Shown in pieces: positions 15,869-56,295 of a stretch of 64,000 bases of DNA. The stretch comes from Isurus oxyrinchus (Eukaryota). The DNA is taken from contig JANJGN010000038.1 in NCBI GenBank assembly GCA_026770705.1, forward strand, positions 8,928,001-8,992,000. Reading direction: 5' to 3'. The position numbers were made by a program, and so were the translations under genes. Below the pieces are notes generated by a model. It was not told where the DNA came from, searched no databases, and saw nothing but the letters and a program-made list of their open reading frames with translations. Position 1 is the stretch's first letter, and each line of letters starts with the position of its first letter.

Positions 15869-15938
15869 CTGGAATACCGATAGCTGCAAGAACAGGATAG
15901 TAAATGGCGAACACCAGACCTTTTGGTATCCCATGCAT
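15869..15938 (-). CDS. GPR139-like GPCR gene 1, exon 1
   Basis: ATG at 15938 (alternative in-frame ATG at 15947), MHGIPKGLVFAIYYPVLAAIGIP, then G|GTAAAG phase-1 donor. Splices in frame to give IGIPANLV, like GPR139 TM1 LGLPANIL. Confidence 0.88.
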
Positions 15939-15989
15939 TTCTCTCATAAGCTCCAAGTGGGCTCTGTGCTACACCGAAAGACTGTTAGA

Positions 15990-16051
15990 TTTATACATGA
16001 TGTCAGACTCTAGGGAGACAATGAGAAGGTTTGGCTTTTTACATTAATTAC
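15990..16051 (-). promoter_or_regulatory. Core promoter module of GPCR gene 1 (homeodomain site, O/E-like site, TATA)
   Basis: Minus strand: GTAATTAATG at 16051, CTCCCTAGAG at 16017, TATAAA at 15995. Same spacing as in genes 2 and 3. Confidence 0.65.
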
Positions 16052-16499
16052 ACTAACTGAAAAAAAACATTTTAGTGCAGCTGCTGCCACGCTCGTGTTT
16101 ATATTTTTGATGGAATGGAATCTGTTTTCAAGGACATTGGCGCGACAGGAGAGTACGGTCCAAGTTGCATTTTTTCCTAAAATTTAAATAACAAGCCAAA
16201 TAAGCCATTGTAATTGTGAAAGTGAGCACTATGCACGAACATCCATGGCTTTAAACCCCGCAAGAAAACATTACAAAGTTCTCACTCTTGATCATTTTTC
16301 AGCCCGTGTGTACATGGATCACGTGTAATGTGGGTCCCTTTTCCTTCTGGAATGAGGAACCAATCAGTAGCCATCCATCATCAGCCTCTCTGCCTGCTTG
16401 GACGTCAACTCACGACGAAAAGTTTCTCAATTAACTCTGTAAATGAAACACCAATGCTATGGGTATTGGCTTGTGTCCTATTTCTGTTTGGCTTTTGGA

Positions 16500-17950
16500 T
16501 GGATTTGTAGCAGAATTATTGATCCAGTCCCACTCAAGCACCTCCATCACACTTTTGCCTGATATATTCATGACCAGATCAGTATTGATCTCGTTCAACC
16601 CCCGAACTGGAAAATGAGGTTACGTTTGCTTTGGAATGTAACCCTCCCCATGCCCTTACTTGCTCCATGTTTGAAATTTATATTTTCTTCTGCCACTTTG
16701 ATGTGGACACATCGGGCAATTGGCTATGGCCCAATATTCAACAGAAGCTCACCAACAACCAGCTATCTTGAATACACATCCATGCACATCGTTTACTGGA
16801 AAGGAACTTTTCCGTTCTCTCAGAATCTCAGTTTCTGCAGAATATGTTCGATTATCCCTTCTAGCTCTCTCCAATAGAGCTTCCAATTACTTCAGCCGAG
16901 TATTTCCAGCGCACCGTGGTTGACAGAACCCAGCGCCATGCATGTAACATGTCTCATACTTCTGCTTTCACACCTTCTCCCCCTCCAGGATCCACAATAG
17001 GCTTCTCCTTGCCCTTGCCTACCATTCCACACATCTCTTGTATCATTTGTTCCACCTCTGCATTTTCAAACTCATCGGCATGTTGTCACTGCCCAATATG
17101 CCCAACTCACTTCTACTCTATAACATTGAGAATGGGTCTTTGCTCCACTCCGCACTTGCCTCCTCCAAAATCAATCCAACCCTTCCTTTTCCGAAGAACC
17201 TTCCCATGCACGCAATGAACATGCAACGCCAGCCTCTGCCTCCCTGCCCTTCTCTCTGTCCTACGTCCCAAACAATGCTTCTAAATGAAAAATCGATTTG
17301 TTTGAACTTCTGTCCATTGAGTATACCCTGTTCACTGCTCAATATGCAGCCTGCTCTACATTCTGGAGGTTAAATGTAGATTGGTGATAATTTCTCAGGT
17401 ACATCCATTCGGTCCACAAGTGTGATCTTCTGGTCACTTGTCAACCTACTTATCTGTTCCGCTCTCACTTTGACATGACTGTCATTGAACCCTCCGACTG
17501 CTCCAAGGAAATGGAACCTGTGCTTCAGGAGTAAAATCTCATATTTCCTTAAGGCACTTTCTAGGCTATTGGATTTTCCATAAATTTCAACAATCGTGAT
17601 CACACCCACTGCATTTTTCTTCCTTCTTTGCTCTTTGTTATTGCGTTGGGAAAACATTTCTTGATTTTGATTCTGTTATAAACAGTTTGCCATGTTTTAG
17701 ACATTCCTCTTCTGCTTTTCCTTGTTCCACTTTGACTTCGACCATCACTGCTTTTGTCATTTGATTTCTCCTGTTTTCCCATTTACCAGAAGCATCTCCT
17801 TTTGAACCTTTTTCCCCCAAATCCGTTTTTTGCCTCTACACTTGCATTAAAACTGTTCCATCTGTAACTTTTGACTGATCTGATGAAAGGTCACATGCTG
17901 CCGGATATCTTGAGTATTTCCATCGTTTCCTGTTTAATTCCATTCAGGGT
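16500..17950 (+). mobile_element. Degenerate Penelope-like retroelement
   Basis: ORF 16614-16877 contains SYLEYTSMH...FPFSQNLSFCRICS, matching the PLE RT C-terminal motif (YLDYTSSHP..IPFSQFLRLRRICS). Ends with a ctgatgaaaggtcac-type PLE terminus. Confidence 0.65.
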
Positions 17951-19010
17951 GTTTACATTCAGTGTAGAAATGTGCAGCTCGGCATGGTTATATTCACAGT
18001 GCACACGCCTGGTTTGGCACGGTTACTTCCATTGTGGACTAGTTCAATTCAGTTAGTGTAGCCATGTCAATCCTGGCAATAACGAAAGTGCACAGGTGTG
18101 TGAATTTACATTTTGTGTGGCAAGATCCAGTTCAGGACGTGTGTGCTTGGTGCTTTCAGTTTAAGCTCAGTCCACTCACATTCAGAGAAGACAACCTCCT
18201 GCTGAGCATGATTAAATTAATGATGGAGCGCTCCAAATCAACATGGTTATATACCATGTAGAAAGTCCTGTTCAGCTCGTTAGCAATCACTGTTTAGTGG
18301 AAAACCAGTTTAGGAGATTATCACGCTGGTGTGACTGTCCAGTTCAGTAACTCTTTCGAGTACAAACCCATTTCCATCTGTTTCAGATGAAGTTACATTG
18401 TTTCATAGTTTGCCATTGTGAGATTTGAAAAGGAAATTGCATTCACTGCATTCAGGTTAAATTGTGCACAGCTGCACTCAGTACGAACATGCCAATTTCT
18501 ATCCTGTTACACTGATGTACATGGACGACTTTTTGCCCGATTATTATCAACTTTATCCGGTGGAAGACAACTACGTACAATGTGCACAGCCCCGGCTGTG
18601 AACACTTTCTTTCTTGCAGTGAAAAATTTCACTTCAGCGTGATTACATTCCATATAGAATAATCAATTTCATTACTGCTGTATTCGATGGAGACAGGACT
18701 GGTCGAGCATGGTTACGTTTCGTGTAGATTTATGAAAGTCTGCTCGGTGTTAATAAATGTGTACATGGACATTTGCATTCAGACTGGACTGGTTTAGTTC
18801 TGCATTCTTACTTTTAATTTGACCTTCTGTGGTTCACTGTGGTGGACAGTCCCAATGGATCACTGTGAACCTTTTAATTTCCCAGCAGCTATGCTTCGTG
18901 TGCAGATGTCTTGATCAGTGAGGTTACATTCAATTTGCGTAATTGCAGTTCTGTAGCATGATTTTCAGTGCAGACGGATCTCGGCCGGAGAGATTTTATT
19001 CATTGTGATT
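17950..19010 (+). repeat. Degenerate minisatellite, ~32-bp unit
   Basis: Recurrent ggttacattcagtgtagac...gttcagcat-like unit. Reverse-orientation relatives occur at ~27170-27530 and ~30450-30780. Confidence 0.55.
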
Positions 19011-20149
19011 TTCCACGACAAAATCCAGGTCTATTGTTAATGATAAAGGAAGGTTCATAGGCAAAGTACCAGGGGATGAGGAGGTTCTGGAGACTTTGGA
19101 ATTGTCTTCTCCAGAAAACAAGAAACGGCAGGGGCACTAAATATATTCAAGGCATAGTTAGACAAATTATTGATCGACAAGAGAACCAATGGTTACTCAG
19201 TCTGACAGGAAAATGGAGTTAAGGCCAGGATTACATTAGTCATGAACTCCGATGGGTTTCACACAGTGTTGACAACAAAATGCATCTTAGGAGAATTGAA
19301 TGGAGCAGTTAACAGCAGCAACAGAGTTAAAAGTGCTCTTCATAACAGTTAATCGATTGCAACTATTTGATAAATTTACGAATAAACATGTGGAGGGTAA
19401 ACAAAAATATGGAAAAATACATACCACTATCATTTACAGTTTCACGCCAATTAGAAAATATGCTGATCTGTAATGGTTAAGCTCAAATCGCCACAAAAAA
19501 ACACCCTCCCACAAATTATATTCCTTCTCCCACAGTTTGCTCTTTCAGTTATCCAACAACAATCCTTCGCAATGTCCTCTTCTTATCTAAAATATTTACT
19601 GTATCACTGGCTTATTTTTGGCAGCACTTTGGATACAAAACTTACTGTTGCTTCATTTTGAACCTTCTAAATGCTGTGAAAAGTTGAGACCCAAATACAA
19701 ATCTTGCGAATCAGCTGTCACCCCCTGTCAATTGAACTGTATTCACATTACCGATCAACAAATTAAATGAGCTTTGTACATATCACAGCCATCGCGCGTT
19801 AAATTTATGTCGATATCAATTTAAATTAACATCTAGGCATGTAAAATAAATGACCTGTTTAACTAAGAAATTCTGGTTTTAATGACATTACTGAAGTAAC
19901 AATTAAACTACATTGTGCAGCATTTGTATCATTTCCAAAACGTCCGTCAACACAAGACACAGAAATCGCGGACATACATAAAACAATCTTGAATGTTTTG
20001 CTGTTGGAGGACAGCCAAACATCCGGAGAAGCTAAACAGTAAACATCTGACCCTCAAGGCTTCACAGTTGAACAAAGATTGAAAGGACTTAATTCCGGAA
20101 AAAGAAACGTAGAATTCAGATTCAGAATGTCTCCGTTTCGTATTTTGAG

Positions 20150-20303
20150 TGGCTCAGAAAACTGACTGGAAAATAAACAGCCGTAAACCGGCTTAATATC
20201 AGTGTAATGATAATAACATGGAGATCTGTCACCGCCATGGACTCTGCGTATCTGCAAAGACCACATCTTCCTCTGGAACGGATCACGATAGTCAGCTAGT
20301 TAG
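20150..20303 (-). pseudogene. Truncated GPR139-like exon-2 pseudogene fragment
   Basis: (CT)n tract plus cttacAG acceptor, then AN*LTIVIRSRGRCGLCRYA-ESMAVTDLHVIIITLILSRFTAVYFPVSFLS. Has an in-frame stop, a small deletion, and is truncated after TM2/ECL1. Confidence 0.8.
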
Positions 20304-20310
20304 CTGTAAG

Positions 20311-20352
20311 GGAGAGAGCGAGAGAGAGAGAGAGAGAGAAAGGAGAGAGAAG
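20311..20352. repeat. (GA)n microsatellite
   Basis: gagagagcgagagagagagagagagaga... Confidence 0.9.
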
Positions 20353-23099
20353 GGAAAAATTAGTTTTGGAACTCCAAGCTACAACATCCGTTTGGCGGGA
20401 GAATGGTATGGCACACGGACCATCAATACTTCATTCAACGCTGGAACTGATTAATTTGCCAATGTATTAATGCTAGTCCATTTTTTGATTTATATTGTCC
20501 CAAATAGAGTGGAAGTCGGAATATAAAATGACACAAAACACTTACTTTCCGTTTCATGTAAATTTTATGTAATCTAGAAATAGAGGGATTTGATCTTCAC
20601 TAACATATTAAATTGACATAAGGACAACCTGAAAATGGCATTAAAATACAGGTCAAAGCTCAATACATTTATTCATTTATAAATACAGTAAATAATAACG
20701 TTATGAAACGTTAAACCGCTATAATAATGAAACCAATCGAATCACAGGAAATAAGTTATGGGTAATAAGTGATTCCTATTAAATATCAGAAGGAACCAAG
20801 GTACGATGAAAAAGAAAAATTGAGCGAACACCATTGATTCAATTTGGGCTTTGCCTTTGTGGAAACTAGTCAAAGCGCATCAAAGGCTTTTTTGCAGTTC
20901 AGTGATTGCTGTAGTGGCAGATTAGGTCTCGCAGCAGTAGTGAGGATTTTCAACTGATATAGCAGAAAGACCTCGGTCTAGAGCCTCGAAAGAAGGACGA
21001 CAGAGTAGAATTCCTCAGCGGCATGGAGCTGGGCTACAGACACGCGATCGGAAGTAGGGAACAAACACAGGGCTTTCCGAACGAACACTGAGATTTCAAA
21101 ATTTAGCTCCGCTAAATAATGTGGCTACGAGTATAATGAATTCCGGCTCCGAAGGGTATCACACAGCCTTGAAAACAAAGTGCACTTCTAAGGAGAATTG
21201 AATGCGGCTGTTAACCGCAGCAACGGAGTTAAAAATGGTGGTCATCACAGGTCATCGACTGCAATGATTGCTGTTAAAGTTACGCATTGCAAATCGAACA
21301 CCAATAAACATGTGGCGGGTAAACAAAAACATGGAAAATACTTACCACTATCATTTATAGTTTCACGCTAATTAGAAAATATGGTGACGTGCAATGGTTA
21401 AACATAAAGCGCCAGAGAAAAACAGCCTTCCCCAAATGGTATTCTTTCTCCCACAGTTTGCTCATTCAGTTATCCAACAACAACCCTTCGCAATGTCCTG
21501 TCCTTCTGTAAACTATTTACTGTACCACATGGCTTATTTTCGGCAGCAATTTGGATTCGAAACTTTCTGTTGCTTCATTTTGATCCTTCTAAATGCGGTG
21601 AAAAGCTGAGGCCCACATACAAATCCTGCGAATCGGCTGTCACTCCCTGACAATTCAACTGTAATTGCATGATCCATCAACAAATTAGATGAGCTTTGTA
21701 CACACCGCAGCCATCGTGAGTTAAATTTACATCGATATCAATGTGAATTAACAACTAAGCATGTAAAATAAATGACCCATTTAATGAAGAAATTGAGGAG
21801 TAAATTACAATTTGAATTAACAGTTTAACTATATTATGCAGCATCTGTATCATTGCCAATAATCCTGTCAACGCAAGAAACAGAACGCCTGGGAACTCAT
21901 AAATCAATCTTAAATGTCTTGCCATTGGAGCACAGCCAAAAACCCGTAGAAGCTATATAGTAAACATCTGACCCTCAAGGATTCACAGTTTAGCAAATGT
22001 TGATAAGAACTAATTCTGGAGAAAAATATAGAATACAACGAACAATGCTAGATAGTACAGTAAGCTACAGAGACAAGACGCATGCCCCTGTGAAAGCCAT
22101 TACCCAGACACAAAACTGCAGAGACATAGCTCAGCCATCTGTAGGATAAAAAGGGTTGAGTTATGAGAGAATTCCATTTAAAAGTTAAGAAAAATGTACA
22201 CTTTACGGTGAAGAAATTATACTAGATTTTAAGAATAACTTCTTCAAATCATTATTTGTTTGAATATCCAGATTGTTCAATAAAGTGGATTTATAATCTT
22301 ATGCTTTCTTACATAGCATTGCTAGGTTATATTCGGTGATATAGTATTGATATACATATGAGTTGTAGCCTCATACTGAATTCCTCACAAACCCACATAT
22401 AAGTAACGATATCATAGAAATCTTAAGTTTCCTTTCTAAGGGCGGATATTGGTAAACTTTTAAAGAGTTTTTTCTTTCTGTAATATACCTGCAGTAATGT
22501 TCTACCCTGGCATAATTTTGTTGGTTCGACAACTCCGAGGAGCCGTCTGAGTTGTTTTGAATTTGTACAGAGCAGTTGTTGGGGGCGGAGAGTGGCGGTG
22601 GGGGAGTAAAGCAGTCGGATCAATGTTACATTTCGAAAAGACCATAGGGAGGAATAATTGATTAGGTTCGATACATACCGATAATGAGAGAGCGGGGTCA
22701 TGGGAATATTCTTGAATGAATATTGTGCTGCAATGCGAATGATGGGCAGTGCCAATTATTTTGGATAGATACTAGCCTATAGTGAGAAGAAAGAAAATTG
22801 TGAATTATTTTAGATTGGTACAGTCTTATTGTGAGAATAAAACACCAGGGTGAAATATCTCGGATTGCCAGAGGCTTACACTTAGAAAATAGGGCAGAGT
22901 GAATTATTCCAGGTTCGTACCAGGTTGAAGCGAATTGCTAGGCAATGTGAAATGTTTTGAACTGAGACAGGCATGTAATGAGAGAGCCGAGCAGTATGAA
23001 TGCCCCTTGGATTGATACAGGATTGGAGTGAAAAGGCAACAATGTGTGAATTTCAAGGATTCTTTTACTGTAGGGATATAGACGAAACAGTGAATGACC

Positions 23100-23295
23100 A
23101 CACACCCCCCACCCCCTCTCTCTCTATCTCTCCGCCCCCCACATACACACCTTAAACCAGCTTATATTTCAACTCTTTCTTGGACTCAAAATCAAGTTCT
23201 GTCGAAGGGTCATGAGGACTTGAAACGTCAACTCTTTTCTTCTCCACCGATGCTGCCAGACCTGCTGAGTTTTTCCAGGTAATTCTGTTTTTGTA
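23100..23295 (+). mobile_element. Penelope-like terminal repeat fragment with minimal hammerhead-like motif
   Basis: Near-identical to 41365-41470 (caagttctgtcgaagggtcatgaggact.gaaa.gtcaactcttttcttctcc.ccgatgctgccagacctgctgagtttttccagg). Confidence 0.7.
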
Positions 23296-26200: not shown

Positions 26201-26439
26201 GTGGGGTGATTGAAAGTTTCATATTCCTGTTTGTAATGCATTTTTGAATCATTCCTTTTAACTCTTTGCAAAGTAAACGTCTCTCATCTTCCCACTGTTC
26301 TGCGAGTGATGGAACATCCCAGGTAATGTGGCAGCTCAAGTGCAATTTATCAGCTCCCAGCAGTTGGGTTATGTGTTTGATATGAGGAACACATTATTAC
26401 TAGGACTGCAATATTGTCTCCACTTAATACTGATACCAC

Positions 26440-27639: not shown

Positions 27640-29258
27640 ATGTCGATGAAATCAGTGCGAGAGTGAGAGAGGGATATTGGCTTAGAAAATCTAGATGTAG
27701 ATGCAACCTGGGTGGAGCTAAGAAGCAACAATGAGTGGAAAAGATCACTTATCTGTAGACCTCCAGACAGCAGTGTCGACATAGGGGACGGCATAAAATA
27801 GGAATTTGGATGTGCATGTAACAATGGTGTTCCAGAAATCATGGATGACTTTTAGCTACATATAGAGTGTCCAAACCAAATTAGCAATTACAATGGCGAA
27901 TGGATTCCTGTCGTGAGTACGAAATGTTTTTATTTCAGACTCGTATGTTGAGGAACAGACTGGGGATCAGGCTATCCTAGATTTGGTATAGTGAAATGAG
28001 AAGCACTTAAATCATAATCTTGTTGTGTTGGGTCCTTTGGGGAACAGTGACCAACATGATAGAATTCTTCATTAGAATGGGAAGTGAAGTAGTCTGGTCT
28101 GAAACGAGGGTGCTAAATCTAACAAAGGAATCGACAAAGTAGGAGATTTGAGTTGGCTAAGATCGATTGGAGTACTTTATTAAAAGGAAAGATGGTGTGT
28201 AGACAACGTCCAATGATTAACGAAAGTGTGCATACATTTCAAAAGTTATACTTTATTTTCTGGCCCAAAAGAACAGGACAGGAAAAACGGCCCCACCATG
28301 GGTAACAAAATAAATTAAGGATAGCTTTAGATCCAAAGAGGAGTCCTGTGAAGTTGCTAGAAAAATTAACAAGCCTAAGGATTGGGAACAGTTTAGAACT
28401 CAGCAAAGGACGACCAAGAGTTCGAATAAGGGGGGAAAATATTGGATGAGGGTAAACTTGCAAGTAACATAAAAGCGGTCATTAAAAGCATCTATAAATA
28501 TTTTTATTAAAAAACCTCACAGTCTGAAACGGGAGAATTTATAATAGAACAGTTACTTTAGCTCTGTCTTCACTTAGGGAGACATAAATAACTTCACAGA
28601 AATAGGAAGGAACGTCGGGTCTATTGAGAAGGAAGAATTCAACGAAATTAATGTTACAAACACAATTGGGCTGGAGAAATTAATCGGACTGAAAGCCAAT
28701 CAATCCCCAAGGCCTGATAATATACATCTTGGGGTACTAAAGGAGGTGGCCATGTAAATAGTGAGTGTAGTGGTTGTCATCTTCCAAAATTATGTAGATT
28801 CTGCAACAGTGCCGGCAGAATGCAAGGTGTTAAATATAACCCCGCTATTTTAAAAAAGAGTGAGGGAGAAAACAGTGAATTACAGACCAGTCAGCCGAAC
28901 CTCAATAGTAGGGAAAATGCTAGAGTCTATTGTACAGTATGTGATAACAGGACATTTTAAAAATATAAATGGGATGAGACAAAGTCAACATGTATCCATC
29001 AGGGGAACTCATGTTTAACAAACCTACTGGAGTTTTTAAGGACGTAACCTGCAATAAAGATAAGAAAGAACCAGTGGCTGTGATGTATTTGGAATATCAG
29101 AAAGCCTTTGACAAAGACCCACATAAAAGGTTAGCGTGCAAAATTAAAGACAGGGAAGAAAGCAGGAATAAGTGGGTCTTCTTTGGCGTGGCAGGAGGTG
29201 ACGAGTGGACTAGCAGGGATCAGTGCTTTGGCCCGAGCTATTTACAATATATATAAAT

Positions 29259-29301
<43 letters not shown>

Positions 29302-30250
29302 ATATATATATATATATATCAATGATTTGCATGACGCAACAACAGGCAATATTTCCAATTTTTGATGACACGAAACTTGGTGAGGATGTGAGCGATGAGG
29401 CAAGTGTTCAGACGCTTCAAGGCGACTTACGCAGGTTGAGTGATTGGGAAAATAAGTGTGAGGTTATCTGCTATGGCAGGAAAAGCAGATTGGCAGAATA
29501 TTATTTAACTGGTGATACATTTGGAAATGTTGATGTGCAAAGGGACCGAGATGCCCTTACGCAGCAATCACTGAAACCAGGCATGCAGGTGCAGCAAGCA
29601 GTTAAGGACGTAAATGGTACGTTGACCTTTATTGCGACAGGATTTGAGAGCAGCAGCAACGATGTCTTACTGCAGCTGTGCATGGTCATTGTGAGATCAC
29701 ACCTGGAGTAGAGTGTGCAGTTCTGGTCTCCTTACCTAAGAAAGGATATATTTGCTGTAGAGGGAGTTCAGCAAAGGTCCGCCACGCTGATGTCTGGGCT
29801 GGTAGAATTGTCTATGAGGAGAGATTGGGCCGGCTAGTCCTTTATTTATTGGAGCTCAGAAGAATGAGAGGCGATCGCATTGAAACATATGAAACTCTGA
29901 CAGGGATGTACAGGCTGGTGCAGGGATGATATTTCCTCTGGCTCGGGCGTCTAGAACAAGGGGTCACAGACTCAGGATACGGGGTAGACCATTTAGGACT
30001 GAAATGACGAGAAACGTCTTCAATCAGAAGGTGGCGAACCTGCGGAATTCTCTAGCACAGAAAGCTGTGGAGGTCAAGTCACTGGATATATTTAAGAAGT
30101 AAATAAATAGACTTCTAGCCTTCGAATGCATCAAGGGGTATGGGGAGAATGCCTGACTAAGGCGTTGAGATAGAGGAACAGCCGTCATCAAACTGAACGG
30201 CGGAGCAAGCTCGAAGGGCTCGAAGGAGTAATCCTACTCCTATTTTCAAT
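27640..30250 (+). mobile_element. Degenerate CR1-type LINE (endonuclease-RT ORF2 remnant)
   Basis: Fragments NYRPVS.TS.VGKMLE, YLEYQKAFDKDPH, FDDTKLG, LQGDL.RL..W, LVRSHLEY.VQFWSP and LELRRMRGD.IE.Y, with many frameshifts. Interrupted by (TA)n. Confidence 0.9.
29245..29319. repeat. (TA)n microsatellite
   Basis: Long atatatat tract inside the LINE. Confidence 0.9.
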
Positions 30251-31193
30251 ATTTCGGTGGATAATTTTTTCCGCACACTGAAGAAAGCATGAGGAATTAA
30301 CTATCTGCACAAGATTTATAACACTGCTTCACATGTGCGCATTGAAGATAGCAGTTAAAATGGGGCCTGTCCATATTCATTGCAAGATGACTGAACTGGG
30401 CCTTTGCAGACTTAGTGCAGCCGTGCATAATCTCGCCTGGCGCTACGGAAAGCGATTTACGGGAAAAGGACGTGCACATTTACCCTTCCTTATCCGTCAT
30501 GAATTAATGTAACGTGGCAGAAATGGAGCCTCGACACATCACATAACCATACCGAACTGGAACGGTCCACATTAACTAGAATCGTGCTCAACTGGACCTC
30601 CGTTTACGGAGTTTAAGCGTACTCTCTATAATTATGCAGAATTAATGCATAAGCGCTTGACTGCATCTGACCAAGTAAAACGTAGCCGTTCACAGCTACA
30701 CAGCTATGCACAATCACTACAACTGGATTTGACATGTCTGCAATGAATTTAACTGATATGGAATAATCCACACTGCAAGAAGCCGTGAAGAAGGTTTGAG
30801 TACTTGAAAGCTAAGTAAAGGTGATGAGTTGAACATTTCCATACCAAATGCGAACAGAATGAGACAGCAAATGCTGGAAATACGCAATAGACCGTTCAGC
30901 ATCTGTGCAGAGAAAACGGTAAAAGGTTCAGATCCATGACTTTACATCGAAGTTGGGGAGTAGGTAGCAATGGAAGAGTTCTTGTTTTCACTATAGCGGC
31001 GGGAAACGGTTGTGGTAAAGGACAGATGATAAAGAAACATCAATGTAGGTTTGTGTTAATGTGGAAGACAGAAGGGCACTTTGTGAGAATGTTCTTTCAG
31101 AACAATGTCAGTGAGCTTGAAGAGCCTTCTACTCCGTCAAAATAAAAATAATTTCCTGTCAGCTGCAGCACGAGCATCTTTGTTTCAATTAGC

Positions 31194-31255
31194 GTAATTA
31201 TTGCAAAAGATCAAAGCGTCTAATTGTCTCCCTGGAGGCTGGCTTGAGATATATC
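31194..31255 (+). promoter_or_regulatory. Core promoter module of GPCR gene 2
   Basis: GTAATTATTG at 31194, TAATTG at 31221, CTCCCTGGAG at 31228, TATATC at 31250. ATG lies 113 nt after the first motif, as in gene 1. Confidence 0.65.
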
Positions 31256-31306: not shown

Positions 31307-33675
31307 ATGCACGGATTGCCGAAAGGTCTTATTTTCATCATATATTATCCCGTCATTGCAGCGATCGGGATTGCAGGTTAAGTATTTTGGTTTGCTATGC
31401 TATTGAAATCAATGTTTAATCACTTCTCTTTGGTTTGCTTTCATTTTAGTGAATCATTGTTCGTATTTAGGAGCTTTGCTTCTACATGGTACGATATTCG
31501 TTCTCCCATTAAACAGAACAATCTATCAACATTACGGCGACATCGTCCCACTTTATCACCCTCGATAATGTGACTTTTTTCCACTTCAAGGGAAATGCTT
31601 AATTTAATTCTCCATTTTATCAACACAATTGTTTTCTTTTACTGACATGATTAGTCGTCATCACATGCCGAGTCGCTCAAGTTTGACTGTGTCATTTCTT
31701 CCGTTGGACATAGTTTCTCCCCAATGCAAGAATAATAATTCAGCAGTAACAATGCACTATCTTCCCTGAGCTAGTAACATTTAGTCAGTTTAATTGGACA
31801 CTTTCATCTGTTAACTGCCACCGTTCGAGGTTTTAGATGTTCTTTTATTTTATTCTTGGTATTTTTCAAAAAGCGTAATGTATAACGCTGTTACCACTGA
31901 GGAAAGGTTTTTCTATTGTTTCAACGGCATTGTCACCGTGGGTGAATTATTACAGAGGAATTGTATTTGTATTATGCATTATCTCATTCTTTTCCCTTTA
32001 ACATTTCGCTGGAATATGAACAGTATTTATCTGATAAATCTGTGCTGAATATTAAATGACTGGCCCAGGGTTTCTTGCCTTAGCGGAAACCTGGCACCCT
32101 GGGCGGAGAGGAATTCTCAGGGAGCTGAAGTTGGGCTTGAATCCAGGACATTTTGATTCTAAAGCTTGACGTCTTTCAATTTAACAGCAACTGGACATTA
32201 AAATGTGTGTGGATTTCCTCCCTGCTGTGAAGGACAGTTGTGTTCACTGCACGTCATCATAACTCATGAGTTTTAGTTACCTTTTATTTCCTTCCAAAGG
32301 AATTTTTTTTTTCATTTTAGCTGTTCTCATTTGCTGGATTATGCCCACAAAAGTAACACTTTGTATTTAATTCCATTCAACGCCATCTACTCAGTTTCTG
32401 TCAAATTCTTAGGTCGATTTAATATTGCGTACCTTTCTGTTTCCAATGTCCTAGCCTGTTCTTCTCTAAACAGCAAGCAGGAGGATATTTGATCGTTTTT
32501 CATTTAACTGAGTAACAATGCAGCAATTTGAATATTCACTATAGGGCCGAGCCTGCATTCTTCCTGTAAATCAGCACAGTATTGACAATTTGCTGCATTT
32601 TGGAAAGAGTCTTTCTTTCTCCACTGGAGCATATAAGTCATAGGACTGAAATGGGAACATTGCTCTCTTTTCATGACCAATGCTGTATTTGTGAGTTTAT
32701 CAACATTTCCTGTTCTATATTCATTTGTCCCCACCGCAAACCTACTGGTTATATTCCTCTGTCACAGCTAATCTGGCAGTAATTGTGATCCTGTCTCGAG
32801 GAAGATGCGGTCTCACTGGACGTATCACATACTACCTGATGTCCATGGCCGTGACGGATCTCCTGATCATGATCCTTGCTGTGATGTTAAACCGGATTGT
32901 AGGTACATATTTCCCATTCAGTTTCCTCTCCATCACTCCGGCCTTTGCTCTTAGTCTTGTGTTCATATATGGCGTCAGGGATTCTTCTGTCTGGGTGACA
33001 GTTGCTTTCACCTTTCATCGATTTGTAGCCATTTGTTGTCAGAAGCTGAAAACCAAATATTGCACCAAGAAATCAGCAGCTGTGGTCATAGGAACTGTCT
33101 GCGTTGTGCATTGTGCTAAAAAAATACCCTTGTACTTTGCTTGTGAACCTTCTGTTATCACGGACAATACACCCTGGTACTGCAAACTAAAGCCAATATA
33201 TTATTTGTCACCCGGATGGGTGGCATATGACAGCATAAATGCCGTTTTAACCCCTTGTCTCCCATTCGTTCTTATTTTGCTGCTCAATGTTCTGACGGTC
33301 AGGCACATTGTTGTGGCCAGTCGAGCCCGCAGAAGACTCCGAGCGCACAGCAAGAGCGAGAAACAAAGCGACCCAGAGATGGAGAAGAGGAGAAAGTCCA
33401 TCGTTTTACTCTTTGCCATCTCGGGAAGTTTCATCCTGTTATATTTCCTCGCTCTTATAACTTTCCTCTACGCACGAATTGCCAGCGTTAGTTATTTCGA
33501 TGGCTCGAATTTCAATCAATCAAATGTTATACTGGAGGAATGCGGACTTATGCTGCAGCTTTTAAGTTCCTGCATCAACCCCTTTATTTAGGCAGGTACC
33601 CAGAGTAAATTCAGAAAGGAGTTAAAGAATGGTGTGAAATATCCATTGAGTCTGATTGTTAATTTTTTTAAATGA
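31307..33675 (+). pseudogene. GPR139-like GPCR gene 2 (exon 1 31307-31376, exon 2 32768-33675); premature stop, probable pseudogene
   Basis: Exon 1 MHGLPKGLIFIIYYPVIAAIGIA G|GT; exon 2 acceptor gtcacAG|. Close paralog of gene 1, but the NPxxY Tyr codon is TAG (33589-33591) and DRF is changed to HRF. The frame continues AGTQSKFRKELKNGVKYPL... to the ancestral TGA at 33673-33675. Confidence 0.85.
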
Positions 33676-41345: not shown

Positions 41346-41349
41346 ATAA

Positions 41350-41470
41350 GTTCTGTCAAGTTCCCTCAAGTTCTGTCGAAGGGTCATGAGGACTCGAAAT
41401 GTCAACTCTTTTCTTCTCCGCCGATGCTGCCAGACCTGCTGAGTTTTTCCAGGTAATTCTGTTTTTGTTT
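41350..41470 (+). mobile_element. Penelope-like terminal fragment (second copy of 23190-23295)
   Basis: Near-identical to 23190-23295. Flanked by a possible duplication ttaacttgt (41334-41342 and 41471-41479). Confidence 0.65.
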
Positions 41471-45468: not shown

Positions 45469-45745
45469 ATTCCACAGACCACATCTGGATTGAAGGCTAT
45501 GAGGACGATAACGGGAACATCTGGACAAAATCTCTAACATTCATCGTCCTGTGCTTCCTGAGCATTTTCGACAGCATTGCCGTCACTCTGGTAAAGGTGA
45601 GAAGATTCAATCCACTCATGCTACAATCTGGCAGAAGCGGTCTGAAAATTTTCTAAACATTTCAACAATTAAAAGTAATAACATAAATGCACCTGATCAT
45701 AAATATCTGCTTCATTATTGTCTCCTTCTTTTACAGATCAAGTGA
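45469..45745 (+). pseudogene. IGHM: Orphan IgM-type TM1 (45469-45596) and TM2 (45737-45745) exons, copy 2, damaged
   Basis: 128-nt exon, same length as copy 1, with AG/GT ends. Encodes DSTDHIWIEGYEDDNGNIWTKSLTFIVLCFLSIFDSIAVTLVK; TM2 is ATC AAG TGA. The CART Tyr is replaced by Asp, and no CH exons are recognisable in ~40 kb upstream. Confidence 0.8.
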
Positions 45746-46959: not shown

Positions 46960-47965
46960 CAAACAGACGCAGCCTGCACCTCGCCCTGCCACACCCCTTT
47001 CCGTTCAGCATATACATGGTCCTTATTCCAGTAAACACAGGCCGACTCTCCACTTCCACCTTTTCTGTTAAATCCATTAGCGCTGTCATTCTCCCTTCTG
47101 CTTTGATAATGAACTGTATTCCTGATCAGCTCATTCCTACTGATACCATCTCCCTGAACTCGCTGGACATCACCCCAGGGGTGAAAACAGAAAACGCTGG
47201 AAATATCAGCAGGTCTGATAGAATCTGCAGAGGCAGAAACAGATTCTCGATTCGGTATGACCCTTCTTCAGCTGAACTCGAAAGGTCAACTCTGTTGCTC
47301 TCTCCTCAGATGCTGTCAGGCCTGCTGAGTTTTTCCAGCAATTTTATTTTTGTTTCAGATTTCCAGCATCCGCAGTATTTTGCATTTATCATCCCAGGGA
47401 TTTCGTTCTACCTGCTTCATCGTTTCGTCAGACGAAACTTCAGAGCCTCCCGATCACGGGAATAACAGCAGAAGTTTCTCTTCATATCCTGCTATCTTCC
47501 AATATCATCCATCTGAAACTGCGCCACTTTTCTCCAATTCCTCAGAGTTCAGGCGCGAGGTTCCATGTTGTTGAATAAAGGAAGGGTTAGGCAGAGAAAA
47601 ATTACCTACACATCTTCAAGACTCGGAATGATATTTATGAATGAGTGGCGTTTTTGCTTAAACCCTGTCTCTCTCCCAATCTCTCTCCCTTCCTCTACCG
47701 CAAAGCCCATCAGGACATCTGAATCAACAACAGAAAAAGTTGGAAAATCTCAACAGTTCATAAAGCATCTGTGAAGAAAACCACAGGGTTAACGTTTCGA
47801 GCCCGCATGATTCTACTTCGGAGTCTTCTTATCTGAACAAAAGTCATAAAGACTCAAAACGTTAATCCTGTCTTTATCTCCACAAGTGATGTTGGACATG
47901 CTGAGGTTTTGCAGCATTTTCTCTTTTAGTTTTAGATTTCCAGAAACCGCAATATTTTGCTTTTA
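46960..47965 (+). mobile_element. Penelope-like remnant carrying two short hairpin (inverted-terminus) insertions
   Basis: PLE-like fragments. Insertion 47181-47387 has complementary arms and is flanked by atcaccccaggg / atcatcccaggg. A second hairpin lies at ~47720-47965. Confidence 0.6.
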
Positions 47966-48089
47966 CTGTTCAGGACTTCCCTCCTCTCATGGCTGCATTT
48001 TTTTTAACCGCTGTCATTGCACATGGGATTTGGGAGTGGCTTATTGATGCAATATAATGGGGATAAAACAGTAAGGCAGACTATTATTT

Positions 48090-48950
48090 AGAAATCTGCC
48101 ATTCTCTGCTTTAAACATACTCAATGATTGTACTTCCACAACTCTCCGGGATGCAGAAATACAAACATTCGCAAACCACTGAGTAAAAAACAATTCTCCT
48201 CATGTCAGTCCTAGTGGCTTTACCCTTATTTTGAAATTGTGTCCCCTGTTTCTAGATTCCCCGACCAGGGGAAACATCTGACCTTCATTTACACTTTCTT
48301 CCATTCAGGTGTTTTGTTTGTTATAATGAGATCTTTTTGCTCATGTTTGGAAACTCTGGAGAATACAGGTCCAGTGTCCCCAATCCTTCTTCACAGGACA
48401 GTCACGCCATCCCTGATGCAAATCTGGTGAGCCTTCGATTCACTCCCTCAATAACATTGACTCCCTTCCGAATGTAAGGGGGCCACACCTGCACATTGTA
48501 CCCCAGGGGTGGCCTAACCAAGATTATATACAAAGGAAATGAGAATTCACTATGGCTGTATTCAAATCCACTTGTGAGAGAAGCTAACATTCTTTTCGCC
48601 TTCCTAAATGCTTCATATGTATGCCAGGTTTCAGAGACTTATTGATGAGGGTACACAGGCCCCCTTGTACAGCTACATTTTCCAGGCTCTCACGTTTTAT
48701 GAAATAATCTGCACCTCTGTTGATCCTACCAAGCTGGTTAACCTCGCATTCTTCCACGTTAAATTTCATCTTTCCTGTTCTGTCCCCCTCACCAAGTCTG
48801 TCCAAATCGCCTTGAAACCGTTTTCCACCTTCCTCACAATACACGTTCCCACCAAGCTTTGTGTCATCCTCGAACTTGGAAATATTACATTTGGCGCTCA
48901 TATCCAAATCATTCATGTGTTGTGAACAGCTGGCTCTCAAGTAGTGAGCC
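48090..48950 (-). mobile_element. Degenerate CR1-type LINE 3' portion
   Basis: ORF 48584-48940(-) ISKFEDDTKLGG...FQGDLDRL...MKFNVEECEV and 48402-48590(-) LYIILVRPPLGYNVQVWPPY. Confidence 0.85.
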
Positions 48951-49879
48951 TTCCAATTCCCAATGGCCAGATGCTGACAAAGTTTGATATTTCACTCTAT
49001 ACTCCATCACCCCCACCACCCCCACCCCCACAACAAAAAACACACACGTAGGTCGCCGGCGCCCCTCACCCCACACCTCACACGTTGAAATGACATGCTT
49101 CAGTTACTGCTGCAGCAGCAGGAGTCCTTTGGATCACGTAAGAGTGTCACAACACTGATGGAAGCCCTTGAAGCATTAGTCTGTTTCTCGCTACACAAAA
49201 GTAGCGAGGGCTGCTGATTATTCCCAGCATTGCTGTTTTTTATTTCAGTTCCGAGCACATTGGCCCCCCCTCTCTCTCCTCTCCTGAACATACTTTTTCC
49301 AGATGAGTTCAGGGGACATTTGAATTGACGAATTTCACTGGAACATAACTTGTGCAGTGGAAATAAATCTTTATTTGAAACGAGGAGACTTCCCGCTCCG
49401 AGATACTGTGACTGTTCAGCTCTAAAAACATTGGAATAAAATCACAGAAAGATTTTGAAAAGCTGCAATCACTGACTTTCGAACCTCTGAAACCCACCCT
49501 CCCATCTGCAGGTTGGTCTGAAATGTTTTGAACAAGATCTCCCTGTGATGCTGGAGACACTGCAGCTTGTCCGCCCCTGGACTGTCACCTGCCCAAGTGG
49601 CCTTATCCTCCAAAGCCCCTTTGGATAATGACATGGAACTCGAGCCTGGTGGGTGGGAATTTCACACACCAGGCCCAAGGACAACAGGAGAGTTGGAATA
49701 GCCAGGAAACCAGCAGGACAAACAGGACTGAGGTAAATTACTTCCCAAATGCACCGTTTCTGTTAGTCATTGAATCCTGGCGGTGAAAGATGAAAACTGG
49801 CCTCACCCTGTGCTCATCACCGAGGTGAAGAGATTGGGAATAAAACAGGGTCAACTCGTATTGATAATGGATATTCTTG

Positions 49880-50781
49880 TCACTGTTTAATACATTTAAA
49901 AATTACAGAAAAGGGATATTTCACCACATTCTTCAGCTCATTTCTGAATTGAGTCTGGGTCACTGCATAAATGGCCGTGTTAGTGCAACAACTCAGGAGC
50001 TGAAATATAAATCCCAGTTCCTGCACAAACCTAGGAAGGTATACAGGAATAGCATCTAACACATATAGCCTATTACAAACAGAATTTATCATAAAAACTA
50101 ACCACAACAGGATAAAATTCCCCGATATAGAAAACAGTAAAATGATGGATTTCCTGCGTTTCTCCATCTGTGGGTCCCTGGGTCTCTCCCCACTGCAGTG
50201 AGCCCGGAGTCTCCTGCGGGCTCTGCTCGACACTAAAATATATCTGACAGTTAAAGCGTTCAACATCAAAATCAAAACAAATGGCACAAATGGTGTTAAA
50301 ATATAATGAAGACATTCGATTGCTGCCCACATTGATGAGAATTCAGCATCCGTCACTAATGTGCAAAACCAAGGAGCATTGGAAAGTGAATATTGACCTA
50401 CATACATAAAGTACCAGAATGAATCCTTCACACAGAATAGCAGACTGACTGTTCCGAGAACCACAGCCGCCGTATGCTGGGTGCAATATTTTGTTTTCAA
50501 CTTCTGGGAACAAATAGCTAGAAATCTATCAAAGGTGAAAGAGACTGTGAACCAGACAGAACAATCTGTGGCTGCATAAAGCAGGACTGCATGGATATTA
50601 CACACTTTAAACCTCCACATGAACTGAAACTGAGCCCAGTAAAGAATAGCAATTTGCCTGAATATGAGATCAAGGATAACGACCAGTAGATCCGCGGTTG
50701 CCATGGACACCAGGTAAAGGGAAACACATTTTGAGAGACCGCACCTTCCCCGAGACAGTGTCACAATAGTCAGTATGTTCA
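49880..50781 (-). CDS. GPR139/GPR142-like class A GPCR, gene 3, exon 2 (intact; spliced protein ~332 aa)
   Basis: Acceptor ttccttacAG ahead of 50781, phase 1. Encodes VNILTIVTLSRGRCGLSKC, MATADLL, FTFDRFLAIC, CTNTAIY, QFRNEL. Stop at 49880-49882. More divergent subfamily than genes 1 and 2. Confidence 0.92.
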
Positions 50782-52084
50782 CTGTAAGGAAGAGAAAGGC
50801 AGGATAGTTATTGTTTAACTTAGAGCAAATGTTACAGACTGATGGAGTGACATTTGAACAGAGTTATCCAAGGTCAGAATCTAATTACTTTACCAGTGTT
50901 TGAGCTTTACGCTGGAGGGAGTGTTTCGAGTTAAACACCATCCTGTTGTAGCAGGAAACCAAATCCTGCAGCAGGTCTCATCGCCACTTCCCTAAATTAT
51001 TCATGGAATTCGGAGTGAAAATCATTCACCCCATTACTAGTCCTGCTCAATATCCCATGAACATGCTGCAAACTGCATCACAACGATATGTAAGAAGGGC
51101 TGTGATTTGTACTGAAGGAAAATGGTTCATTTATTTATGAGAAGACATTTGAGTGGAACATTAAGGTTGTGTAAAGAAGTAAATACAGATTTGAATTCAG
51201 AAATTGTATTTCAAATCAGGATGTCCAAATGTGCCTTCCTGATAATTATTGCCTTCGCCAAAAGGCACAATGAACGCTTAGACTGTATCCCAGTAACAAA
51301 TAGACTCTCGAAAAGAAATAAAGAACAGGGAGGTAAATGGATCGCTAGACTGAAGAAAATAAATTAGAGATTGAATCAGAGCTGGCCAACACGAAGGAAC
51401 AGCAGAGAGTGGCAGCACCCAAAATTCAGGCTGGCTAGCAGGAGAGAATTTACCAATGGATCTAATGTCTGTGTTTTGGGCCAGGAATTAAATGGGCCAG
51501 TGGTTGGGAAATGAAGTTGTTACATAAGAATGCAAGAACTAGGAGCAAGAGCAAGCCATATTTCTCTTTGGTCAACTCTAATGTTCATTAAACCCATGGC
51601 CATTCTTCGAATTCTACTATCCAAATCTATCCCCATTTATCTTAATGGCCTTAGAGCACAAGAATCTACCGACCAACAGCCGTCGAGAGTTAATAATTCC
51701 GACGTTTCTCCACTTTCTGAGTGAAGAAGATTCTCTTCATCTCAATTCCAAATGGCCAACATTTTATCTCAGGGATCGAGTTCTCGACTCCCCACCTAAG
51801 GGAAACATTCTCTCAGCATCCATGCTATGAGGACACTAAATTATTTTCTATGACTCGATGAGATAATCACACATCCTCTAAATTTAAGAAGATGCATGTC
51901 AAATTTGATTGATTGATTGATTACTTAAGTATATTTTTCCTTAGGCAAGAAGGCCAAAACTGTACACATTAATCGATATGTTTTCTCACCAATCACATGC
52001 ATAATTCTATCAAAAGTTCCTTACTCGAATACAGGGAAGACTGCCATTTATTATCCTATTCACTTGCTATATTGCTGTATCCTA

Positions 52085-53310
52085 ACCTCATTACAGCTTT
52101 GTTTCAAACATGGAAAAAGGAGCTGAACTCCCGGGGGGAGGTGAGAGCGGCTGCCCTTGACATCAAGGCAACATTTGGCAGAGTGTGGCATCAAGGGCCC
52201 CTAGCAAACCTGGAGTCAATGGGAATCAGGGGGGAAATCTCTGCTGCTTCGAACCATACCTAGCAGAAAGGATGATGGTTGTGTTTGTTGGGGGTCGATC
52301 ATCTCAGCGCTAGGACTTCACTGCAGCATTCCTTCAGGGTACTGTCCTCGGCCCAACCATCTTCAGCTGCTTCATCAATGACCTTCCTTCCATCACATAG
52401 TCAGAAGTGGGATGTTCGCTACTGATTTCACAATGTTCAGCGCCATTAATGACTCCTCAGGTACTGAAGTAGCCCATGCTCAAATGCAGCAAGAGCTGGA
52501 CAATTAGCAGGCTTGCGCTGACATGTGGCAAGTATCTTGTGCACCGCTCAAGTGTCAGGCAATGACCATCTCCAACAAGGGAGAAACCAATCATCGCCCT
52601 TTGTCATTCAATGGCATTAACATCACTGAATCCCCCACTATCAAATCCTGGGGTTTACTATTGACCAGAAACGGAACTGAACAAGCCATATAAATACTAT
52701 GGCTACAAGAGCAGATTAGAGGCAAGGAATAGTGCGACGTGTAACTCACCTCCTCACCGCCAAAGCCTGTCCACCATCTGCAAGGCACAAGTCAGGAGTG
52801 TAGTGGAATGCTCCTCGCTTGCTTGGATGGGCGCAGCTCCCAGAACGCTCAAGAAGCTTGACACCATTCAGGGCAATGCATCTCGCTGGATTGGTAGCAC
52901 ATCCAAAAATATTTACACACTCCACCACTGTTGCATAGTAGCACCAGTGGGTGCCATCTACAAGATGAACTGCAGGAACTCATCAAGGCTCTTTCAGCTG
53001 CACGTTCAAACCCCGACCACTACCATCTAGAAGGAGAAGGGGAGCAGACAGATGTGAACACCACCAAACGGAAGTTCCCCTTCAAGTCACTCACCATTTT
53101 GACCTGGAAATATATCGCCGTTCCTTCTCTGTCGCTGGGCCAAAATCCTGGAATTCCCTTCAGAACAGCACTCTGGGTGCGCCTACACCCCGAAGACTAT
53201 AGCAGTTCAAGAAGGCAGCTCAGCACCACCTTCACAAAGGCAACTAGTGATGGGTAATAAATTCTGGCCCAGCCAACGAAGCCCATTTCCCATGAATGGA
53301 TAATAATAAC
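52085..53310 (+). mobile_element. L2/CR1-group LINE 3' half (RT remnant) in the intron of GPCR gene 3
   Basis: ALDIKATFGRVWHQG, QG.VLGP.IFSCFINDL, MECSSLAWMGAAP motifs, with stops and frameshifts. The 3' tail is shared with the SINE family. Confidence 0.85.
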
Positions 53311-56045
53311 ACATATTGCGTGTTAGCTTTCTCTAGATTGTGTACCCGAGCAGCCAAATTATGAAAATTTACAATTTTTACCAGTTTCTCGACTGTTTAA
53401 ACGCTGGATGAGGATAGAATGAAACTCGTCTGTGTTATTATCTCAGGGAAACTGAAGATTCTGGTGCAATATTAACACAGGGCTTTGATGCATGTTTAAA
53501 TTAATATGTCAGATAATTCATAAAATTAATGGTCCTGGCCTCCTATTTGGTGGCGATACTCGGATAATCAGCGCTGATTGTAAATGTAATTAAAGCCGTA
53601 TCTTTTTCCACCCTTGCAGCTTGTTTTTCTTGCCTCCATAGCGGGGTGGGGGAAATGAGCTGTGTACGAGGTGCGTAGATGGCGGGTGGTCAGCAGTTGG
53701 GATGGGGATGGGTGAGTAGTTAATGTGCTTTGCAGTCGGTTGGGGGTTGAATGGACGGGCGATGGCTAGTGAGAGCTGTGCAAGTGGATCGAGGGGAAGG
53801 CAATCGAGTCAGATTAGATATTCTGGGGTCAGTAGTTGGGGGTGTTGTGGGTTGTTGTGTGTGGGATGAATGTGGGAGTTCTGTAGGTGGGGGTTGGGCG
53901 TGCATGGGCTTTGCTTGAAAGTTATTCACTGACACATGCTAGAAATTAATAGCGGGAAAATACTACGCCAAGCATCTGTCACACAACAGGCACAACAGTC
54001 CAACACTAAAGTCAGTATTGGAGTCATTGTTAGAGGGGCCTGGGCAATACAAATCTGCCCATCTGAAGTTTAAAGTTCATGGGAAATTACCATGCATGCT
54101 CCTGGATCAAGATTTCAGATCGGTCCTGATATGCAGAGCGGCAGACATTGCAATATTCACCACTGTTGGCATCAGGAGTTCCGGTTAATGATATAGTCAG
54201 TATTAATTTCACGGCAATGGACTCCAGACACCAGCTGCAGATAGAGGGAAATTACACAAGAGCGAAATGGAGATCAGGTCAAAAAAGGCTGGCTTAGGGT
54301 GAATAACAATAAAGAACACATTTTAAGAATTATCTTAAAGGATGATAAGTTTGTGGCGAGGACAAAGGATTTCGGAGGAAATTCAGAACATGAAACTCTT
54401 AATACTTCATTGTGGTCACCCATGCCAAAGGCTGCAGACATGTCGACAAAAGGGAAGAGAGGCAGCTCGACATTAGCAGAGTCACATAAGATATAATTTG
54501 TGCCTTTGCTAAGGACGGTGTAAGAGTTGTAATAAGGTAGAAAAATGGTTAGAAAGATTTAAGCATGGTGTCCCTGGAAGATGGGGCAGAAACGTGGGGG
54601 GTAGCAGCAGGGACAAGGAATTTGTAGAGGAAAGAGAGGTTAGAGATGGAGTGTTTGCTTACAAAGACTGAGGCAACAGGGGTTGCTTATTTACAAGGGC
54701 AGGGGTAATGACTACAGAATGGAGCAGCAAAGAACAGTGGCTAAGCAGATGGAACTATTAACTATATCAGCAACTGAGGAACATGATGAGGAAGTTCGGT
54801 GTTCAGCAGTTTGGTGGGAGTACGGTGAACCAGTCCCCACCAGCAGCCACCCCTCCGCCCACACCCTACACCATGCCTCCCACCAACCCAATCAAACGCC
54901 TGGAAATCTCACATCTGAAACATAATGGAATGCTCACTACTCATCAGTATGGTTATCAGAGCAACACCCAATAAGCAGAATCACCTTCAATAATGGAATA
55001 GATTTTCCATCAGTGTCCGTCCATCATTATACTTGCTATTTCTCCACCTCCACCTCTGTGGATGCAGGAAGAATGTCTACAGAATCAACTACAACAACAC
55101 ACCGGGGCTACTTCGACAGCACGTACCAGGACAGCAAAATGCAGAAGGCGTGCAATGCCGTGAGATTCACCTTCTCTAACGCACCATCCTGACTTGGAAC
55201 GGTAACATCTCCCTTCATCAGTGTTCCGGAATTCCCTAACAGCAGGTAGGAGCACAGTCAGCAGAGGGAATACTTCAGTTCAGCAAGAAGACTCAGCACC
55301 AACTTCTCAGCTCACTTCCAGATGGGTAATAAATGGAAGTTTGTCACAAGCATCCATTTCCCAAGGACACATTTTGAAAAAAAAACTTTGAGAGGGGGAT
55401 AATGATTTGCAGCTCTAAATAACGTCATGCAGAGACAAGGGAAGGAAATTAAGTCTGTGGACAGAAATGGGAACGGAGCCAATTGTTGGTGAGGGGAGCA
55501 AATATTGTTGAACAATTATTACATTTTAAATTCTCTCCTAAATATCTAAATTTGGTTATTGTTAGGCAAAGCGGGAGATGGTGGAATGGAATTTGCCTGG
55601 AGCTGAATCATTATGTGAGATCTTCCCTCGTTCCTGTCTGCCCTAATTTCCGCAGATCAGTGCAAATTACTATCTGCATCGCACTGCAAAACCAATACCT
55701 GCGCAACATATTCTGCTCAGATATTGGGGTTCAGTTTAAACAGCAGACTGCAGCTGTTCAATAGCTATAATTCATCACTAATATTTATTGCATAAAATAT
55801 TATACCAGCCAAATTCTGAAGAAAAAAATCATTTGAAGCAAGTCTTGAGATATACAAACGGTCCAATGAACTGTGAACAGTGAATCAGCAACTGCTGAAA
55901 TGCTACTTCACAGAAGCACAGGGCATTACATGTCACAGGACACAAGAATTACAGAGAATAAAATTAATTAACTTACGTTAAGGGCAAGGACAACAAACAT
56001 GATGAAAGATGTTTTATAAAATAAGTTTCTAAAATAATCACTCAC

Positions 56046-56142
56046 CAGGAATGCCAACAGCAGCGAGGAGCGGATAGTAAATCCTTTGCAAATCATAAAT
56101 CACCCAGACAATCCGAAGTTCAGTTGGAATTTCAAAGAACAT
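56046..56142 (-). CDS. GPR139-like GPCR gene 3, exon 1
   Basis: First in-frame ATG at 56142: MFFEIPTELRIVWVIYDLQRIYYPLLAAVGIP, then G|GTGAG phase-1 donor at the same codon position as genes 1 and 2. Confidence 0.82.
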
Positions 56143-56233
56143 GATCTCATTTGCTGTGAGATCCAATGATCGCTGTTTATACTGGCGACCACACTCTGTC
56201 AAACACTGATATACACATTGAAAACATTGCCTA

Positions 56234-56295
56234 GATATAGGCGGAGGAGAGTCCTGGTGATTCAATTAAACAATACACTGGCTGGCATTAATTAC
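56234..56295 (-). promoter_or_regulatory. Core promoter module of GPCR gene 3
   Basis: Minus strand: GTAATTAATG at 56295, TAATTG at 56268, ATCACCAGGA at 56261, TATATC at 56239. Offsets (0/27/34/56) are identical to gene 2. Confidence 0.6.

Follow-up and report, generated by a model that had tools for sequence, protein, structure and literature searches.

The composite element of the mouse Greek Islands, as set out in the available text of two studies, consists of a homeodomain site, one base and a degenerate Ebf site (PMC5608512, PMC11643329). For the shark nose, the catshark study (PMC10116579), in the sections accessible, gives a known repertoire of 34 V2R genes and 4-9 genes in each other family, and the part available of a whale shark paper describes cartilaginous fishes as poor in G-protein-coupled receptors (GPCRs; PMC8455134). 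Here we analysed a stretch of 64,000 nucleotides, referred to as the window, from the shark Isurus oxyrinchus (assembly GCA_026770705.1, contig JANJGN010000038.1, positions 8,928,001 to 8,992,000, forward strand). Three class A receptor genes in the window (genes 1-3) are each preceded by the same module, composed of an upstream element, a homeodomain site, a composite of a second homeodomain-type site with an Olf1/EBF (O/E)-like site, and a TATA-like box. This 75-bp element is almost certainly a selected promoter used family-wide, and to judge from its sequence and position it is likely the core promoter of the family. We found no paper on this receptor family or its promoter in sharks in a literature search whose coverage leaves out most subscription journals.

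The module in the window and across the family

An earlier note on this DNA had taken the word GTAATTAWTG at 16051 (-), 31194 (+) and 56295 (-) as position 0 and described a common layout behind it. The positions were exactly as claimed, as were the second homeodomain-type site at +27 (TCATTG, TAATTG and TAATTG in genes 1, 2 and 3, respectively), the O/E-like site at +34 (CTCCCTAGAG, CTCCCTGGAG and ATCACCAGGA) and the words TATAAA, TATATC and TATATC at +56. The O/E match had been called imperfect, and this was confirmed, with gene 3 the poorest. The leading 10-mer occurs four times in the window against 0.38 expected, a count reached by none of 100 shuffles. The fourth copy, GTAATTATTG at 6599-6608 (+), has no composite, TATA box or exon 1 behind it, is likely due to chance and was excluded. 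The module extends further 5' than had been claimed, since it also includes a (C)TGTTTGTT(C)AGTGACT element that occupies roughly positions -16 to -1. The flanks had been regarded as unalignable; this holds between deep clades (29% identity) but not for genes 1 and 2, which align at 72% over 268 bp (E 9e-33) through the promoter. The agreement in layout between these two genes is thus a matter of descent, and the window contains two independent lineages rather than three.

For the family, 60 of the 100 exon-1 sites listed, together with the window genes, provided 44 non-redundant promoters. An unseeded motif search by expectation maximization upstream of the paralogues returned both elements as its top motifs, cTAATTg..tC.CtGGag and TTTGTT.AgT.AcTgtaAtTAAt. 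The log-likelihood was 240 for the composite (introns, 117; shuffles, 65) and 439 for the upstream element (introns, 236; shuffles, 140), and 38 of the 44 promoters could be anchored by one or the other element. As for the fixed spacing that had been proposed, the offsets are constant in the three window genes, but across the family the spacing is modal. With leave-one-out matrices, the upstream element and the composite were exactly 40 bp apart in 19 of the 44 promoters, 37-45 bp apart in 24 and about 31 bp apart in some others, and introns displayed no common spacing. The module sits 150-580 bp before the exon-1 donor and is common to clades only about 48% identical in protein. The gene-1 clade carries an E-box, GCAGCTGC, and the consensus of the gene-3 clade is CACTGGAG.

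The layout might be common only because the genes are duplicates, through neutral shared descent or gene conversion. This accounts for gene 1 versus gene 2, and for the 50 exact matches of the full layout in the 4.98-Gb genome (reversed control, 0), which are all near-identical copies of the three window promoters (15 of gene-1, 13 of gene-2 and 22 of gene-3 type) in segmental duplications. Recent copies offer a weak contrast, with 8 distinct changes in 45 motif columns and 8 in 31 spacer columns among 26 gene-1 copies. Deep clades, however, keep the motifs and not the sequence between them. In 13 pairs drawn from 7 genes with protein identity below 56%, the motif columns, which were chosen on the family and are hence partly circular, were 72% identical, compared with 28% for spacers, 29% for flanks and 50% for fourfold sites. 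Since genes 1 and 2 are related, the real test, and one free of that circularity, is recovery between their clade and that of gene 3. A composite matrix from one deep clade recovered the homologous site of the other in 10 of 14 and 12 of 13 promoters (about 740 positions each), whereas spacer and flank matrices gave no cross-clade recovery in the same promoters. We therefore consider neutral descent very improbable and largely refuted by these sequence comparisons.

Genome-wide, a composite-plus-TAT pattern gave 158 matches (control, 0). The module is specific to the family: 19 of the 20 matches examined precede a family exon 1, recognized by donor score in 18 cases and by exon-1 peptide in one (L128, donor disrupted), with the module 157-523 bp before the end of exon 1. 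The lone remaining match, on contig C8, has no family exon 1 behind it. When loci were instead picked by similarity in exon 2, exon 1 could be located in 8 of 12, and 4 of these 8 have the module wholly or partly. Promoters L103, L106, L108 and L110 carry a variant in which TGTTTGTTCAG, an O/E-like site and TATA are kept and the adjacent TAATTG is gone. In these four promoters the TGTTTGTT element stands, with spacing judged by eye, about 10 bp (one helical turn) nearer the O/E-like site. Two single-copy shark genes of the same wider group have no module within 3 kb of their exon-1 donors.

Candidate factors and tissue of expression

The OMP probe used in the mouse composite study carries an O/E site, according to the part of that paper available (PMC5608512). 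Across 31 shark sites, the published Ebf half gives its best fit in the register seen in mouse (0.16 mismatches, the best of 10 shifts), and 18 of 22 shark TAATKR sites fit it perfectly. A binomial P of 7e-17 was discarded as a gauge of this fit, given that all the sites go back to a single ancestor. In 26 of the 52 promoters, a match to the canonical O/E (EBF) palindrome TCCCNNGGGA with two mismatches or fewer stands 10-14 bp ahead of a TATA-like word; the figure for intron controls is 5 of 52. Perfect palindromes occur in the divergent members L032 and L084. This positional evidence is better support for a putative EBF site than the fit to the mouse pattern. It makes the O/E-TATA pair the most widely kept part of the module.

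The remaining sites may be read by other factors. Going by consensus sequences, the TGTTTGTT element is presumably a forkhead or SOX site and the clade-specific E-box presumably the target of an E-box factor, and CACTGGAG is one base away from the NK2-type consensus CACTTGAG, which is itself present in L049. These sites would suit a genuine promoter acting in a sensory cell outside the nose, such as taste or solitary chemosensory cells (skin, gill, gut), enteroendocrine cells or electroreceptors, with forkhead/SOX, basic helix-loop-helix, homeodomain and possibly NK2-type factors as readers. The TGTTTGTT element and the GCAGCTGC E-box fall outside the mouse composite as described in the text available, and the lack of the module in V2R promoters, described below, also speaks for such a cell. 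On the other hand, the perfect or near-perfect TCCCNNGGGA sites of divergent members favour COE/EBF over NK2, and repertoires running to many hundreds of genes are characteristic of olfaction and not of taste or gut sensing. We regard expression in such cells as rather unlikely.

In the mechanism we propose, an ancestral upstream module, kept across hundreds of shark class A receptor genes, would serve as their core promoter. The TATA box would be bound by TBP, and the pyrimidine/purine palindrome that lies 11-14 bp upstream of the box by a COE/EBF dimer. A LIM-type homeodomain protein, for example Lhx2, would occupy the adjacent TAATTG, with a second homeodomain protein and a forkhead/SOX-type factor binding about four helical turns further up. 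The module would switch the genes on in olfactory sensory neurons. Because each duplicate carries the whole switch, expansion of the family would not have needed a distant enhancer in common. We give an even chance to the possibility that the module drives expression in olfactory neurons; the family would then be an olfactory repertoire that has gone unnoticed. That the receptors are chemical sensors of some kind is likely.

The family is indeed strongly expanded, as had been supposed. An exon-1 donor pattern gave 654 matches in the genome (control, 0), a lower bound for the family in which near-identical copies on different contigs may include haplotype duplicates. Stops are present in 32 of the 132 matches to gene 1 listed, pN/pS is 0.38 among 28 open gene-1 copies, and column identity is 0.55 in the extracellular half versus 0.77 elsewhere (35-sequence alignment, region limits set by eye). 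The family thus has the size, the birth and death and the diversified ligand face of an olfactory repertoire. In the catshark, each known receptor probe labels 0.45-5.9 cells per mm of lamella, as reported in the part of the study available (PMC10116579), and most olfactory neurons presumably carry no known receptor. Such sparse labelling could accommodate a further, as yet undescribed repertoire. The present family, labelled 'probable GPR139', has at least 654 first exons in one genome, and its expression in the nose, if it occurs, would upset the count of a few dozen smell receptors in sharks.

Several points weigh against expression in olfactory neurons. The mouse pattern is loose, as its Ebf half is matched in full by 7.8% of TAATKR sites in background sequence and 12 of 13 AT-rich V2R promoters contain the composite pattern with 0-1 mismatch. 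The shark sites descend from one ancestral site, so that the Ebf-half fit counts about once. Their spacer base is a pyrimidine in 26 of 31 cases, where the mouse pattern has a purine, and whatever the register, the 31 sites average at least 3 mismatches to the 8 bases of the canonical EBF site. EBF and homeodomain factors also act in many other cell types. The clade with the variant promoter, which makes up 4 of the 8 held-out genes, has no homeodomain-O/E composite. Among 11 V2R-like promoters from the clusters on contig C2, none has a composite above 10 bits and one has a 15-bit upstream element; the idea of a module shared with these known shark olfactory receptors was rejected. In the sections accessible, the catshark study reports that all olfactory neurons appear microvillous and that no olfactory receptor (OR) was detected in them by in situ hybridization (PMC10116579), which weakens the analogy with ciliated OR neurons. 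A catshark library of brain plus olfactory epithelium has no GPCR among its top 50 genes in the part of the report available (PMC11979771), a weak point as single receptors are diluted. Finally, the earlier note had cited the response of mammalian GPR139/GPR142 to aromatic amino acids, an argument that does not transfer. The residues that GPR139 needs for activation by Trp/Phe (F109, H187, W241 and N271, from the available part of PMC5430874) correspond, when mapped by eye on the profile alignment, to Y-H-W-F in gene 3 (2/4 identical) and to Y-I-H-R in gene 1 (0/4). With the pocket only partly kept and orthology lacking, as described below, an aromatic amino acid ligand cannot be assumed.

The promoter might also be a real one that serves a tissue without sensory function, be it central neurons, gonad or, by way of EBF in the B lineage, immune cells; the expanded receptors would then sense immune or endocrine signals. 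Immune receptor families, too, show segmental amplification and a variable outer face. The module, however, has no conserved ETS-type GGAA column, and a double homeodomain site with a TATA box is more typical of neuronal terminal genes. In favour of such a tissue, GPR139 itself is a brain receptor according to the text available (PMC5430874), and shark ORs are reported, in the portion seen of the catshark study, to be highest in non-olfactory organs (PMC10116579). Balancing these points, we consider a non-sensory role unlikely. Among the sequencing runs listed for gene 3 exon 2, none was a holder of RNA. Putative RNA from a related organism was used neither for nor against any of these readings; in 5 of 6 runs short contigs of diverged family members lie over exon 2, and in the tables listed for the same 6 runs no contig joins exon 1 to exon 2.

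The V2R-like promoters have features of their own. In the V2R-like first exons (L142-L180, G000:C2), a TATA lies about 155-195 bp before the GDII motif, and a TTTCYYTGGGRG-like site, slightly above shuffles, is often found 70-100 bp above the TATA. A weak pyrimidine/purine motif reached a log-likelihood of 52, versus 40-45 in shuffles run with fewer starts.

The receptors and the genes of the window

Family members bear the database name 'probable GPR139', and the earlier note had read the genes as kin of GPR139/142. In a search of the PDB, the best match to the family profile was human GPR139 (7VUG, 9M42; 57.8 bits, E 9e-15). However, when the profile was run separately against a different database, orphan receptors of salamanders and other amphibians, coelacanth and teleosts reached 159-203 bits, and the family members are not orthologues of GPR139/142. 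Pfam identified only 7tm_1. In a tree of 39 rows, the shark genes group with skate and stingray ones in an elasmobranch expansion (100/98). Its sister (96/91) is an amphibian/sturgeon gene (XP_031757816.1 in Xenopus) occurring once per species among those listed, and a second conserved vertebrate gene lies outside both (midpoint root, tree without GPR139). The trees cover the loci that remained after setting aside 24 of 63 whose exon 2 fell beyond the 7 kb examined and 13 with fragmented frames. The vertebrate orphan relatives (types A and B) probably correspond to the GPR210 of Rinne et al. Named homologues 64-80% identical are found in Heptranchias, Heterodontus, Pristiophorus and Scyliorhinus.

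L092/L101 (G000:C6:157.84-157.87 Mb) is a single-copy, long-branch orphan receptor of the wider group that has no module and whose exon 1 is about 25 kb upstream of exon 2. L091/L095 (G000:C9:126.71-126.72 Mb) is the conserved type-A gene, 82% identical to that of catshark; its exon 1 ends at a GC donor, and a single TGA interrupts the match as reported. In the gene-3 clade, exon 1 (L033, L069-L074, L081-L083) contains variable-number tandem repeats with units like WNVTTMDQNLRTID. Each such unit carries an N-glycosylation sequon, and N-terminal length thus differs among the paralogues.

In the window, each module precedes a short coding exon that ends in YYPxxAxxGIP at a phase-1 GT donor, and the second exon encodes the remainder of a class A seven-transmembrane (7TM) receptor (Table 1). 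The frames of genes 1 and 3 are open. In gene 2 a TAG replaces the tyrosine of the NPxxY motif in the seventh transmembrane segment, with the loss of the last 27 residues; gene 2 is a probable pseudogene, and some of its paralogous copies have an open frame.

Table 1. Coordinates of promoter and coding features of genes 1-3 in the window
Feature	Position	Strand
Gene 1 upstream element, T-rich TTTTTTCAGTTAGT version of the family TGTTTGTTCAGTGACT element; putatively forkhead/SOX-like	16052..16067	-
Gene 1 homeodomain site 1, GTAATTAATG	16042..16051	-
Gene 1 composite TCATTG-T-CTCCCTAGAG, homeodomain + O/E-like	16008..16024	-
Gene 1 TATA box, TATAAA, +56	15990..15995	-
Gene 1 coding exon 1, ATG to phase-1 GT donor, 23 codons + 1 base	15869..15938	-
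Gene 1 exon 2, open 7TM class A frame, PF00001	13711..14621	-
Gene 2 upstream element, TTTGTTTCAATTAGC region	31180..31193	+
Gene 2 homeodomain site 1, GTAATTATTG	31194..31203	+
Gene 2 composite TAATTG-T-CTCCCTGGAG	31221..31237	+
Gene 2 TATA-like box, TATATC, +56	31250..31255	+
Gene 2 coding exon 1	31307..31376	+
Gene 2 exon 2, PF00001, premature TAG 33589-33591	32768..33675	+
Gene 3 upstream element, TGTTTGTTAAGTGACT	56296..56311	-
Gene 3 homeodomain site 1, GTAATTAATG	56286..56295	-
Gene 3 composite TAATTG-A-ATCACCAGGA; weakest O/E-like match	56252..56268	-
Gene 3 TATA-like box, TATATC, +56	56234..56239	-
Gene 3 coding exon 1, 32 codons + 1 base	56046..56142	-
Gene 3 exon 2, open 7TM class A frame, PF00001	49880..50781	-

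Gene 3 has an out-of-frame ATG 8 bases 5' of its start (window 56150-56100, -), which opens an overlapping upstream frame of 16 codons and is retained in the paralogue L089. An additional TATAAA is present at about 56181-56176 (-). The gene 3 intron contains a high-copy repeat at 52040-53443, with very deep cover in all runs examined, that is probably a fragment of a long interspersed nuclear element (LINE). The frame at 29214-29711, which has no Pfam match, is presumably another LINE fragment, judging from its likeness.

Comparison with described systems

The nearest bony-vertebrate relatives found for the shark family are probably of the GPR210 kind, non-mammalian orphans related to GPR139/142 that were described in coelacanth, gar and fishes as GPR210 A and B and a third set (Rinne et al. 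2019, PMC6504862, from the text available). The word 'shark' does not occur in that paper. The family resembles OR, TAAR, V1R/ORA and V2R/OlfC in being large and clustered, in the birth and death of its copies and in its variable extracellular face. It differs from them in being a separate receptor lineage, with two coding exons and an intron in the first transmembrane segment. A stronger proposal, which we advance tentatively and hold at somewhat short of an even chance, is that olfaction in sharks and rays relies mainly on a fifth family of vertebrate olfactory receptors, comprising many hundreds of GPR210-like class A receptors whose own Lhx2/Ebf composite is fused to the TATA box. If this were true, receptor choice would be encoded gene by gene and not by distant enhancers, and mis-annotation would account for the notion of a 'vomeronasal-only' shark nose.

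With respect to the promoter, the earlier note had taken the composite as a mark of both OR promoters and OR enhancers. The available text of the mouse studies supports this for the enhancers, which are intergenic, and reports depletion from OR promoters (PMC5608512, PMC11643329). The shark composite lies instead 12 bp from the TATA box in most of the genes sampled, a difference that adds to the points against olfactory expression given above. As a putative binding site, the shark composite resembles the mouse Lhx2/Ebf site. Both consist of TAATTR, one base and a degenerate Ebf-type palindrome of pyrimidines and purines, and the likeness extends to single sites, as the mouse Sfaktiria probe reads TAATTG-A-TCTCCAAGGA in the part of the study available (PMC5608512) and gene 2 reads TAATTG-T-CTCCCTGGAG. 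Unlike the mouse composite, the shark module includes a second homeodomain site and the TGTTTGTT element about 40 bp upstream. By analogy, the comparison suggests that a homeodomain/EBF composite may have been used at promoters independently of, or before, its role in mammalian enhancers.

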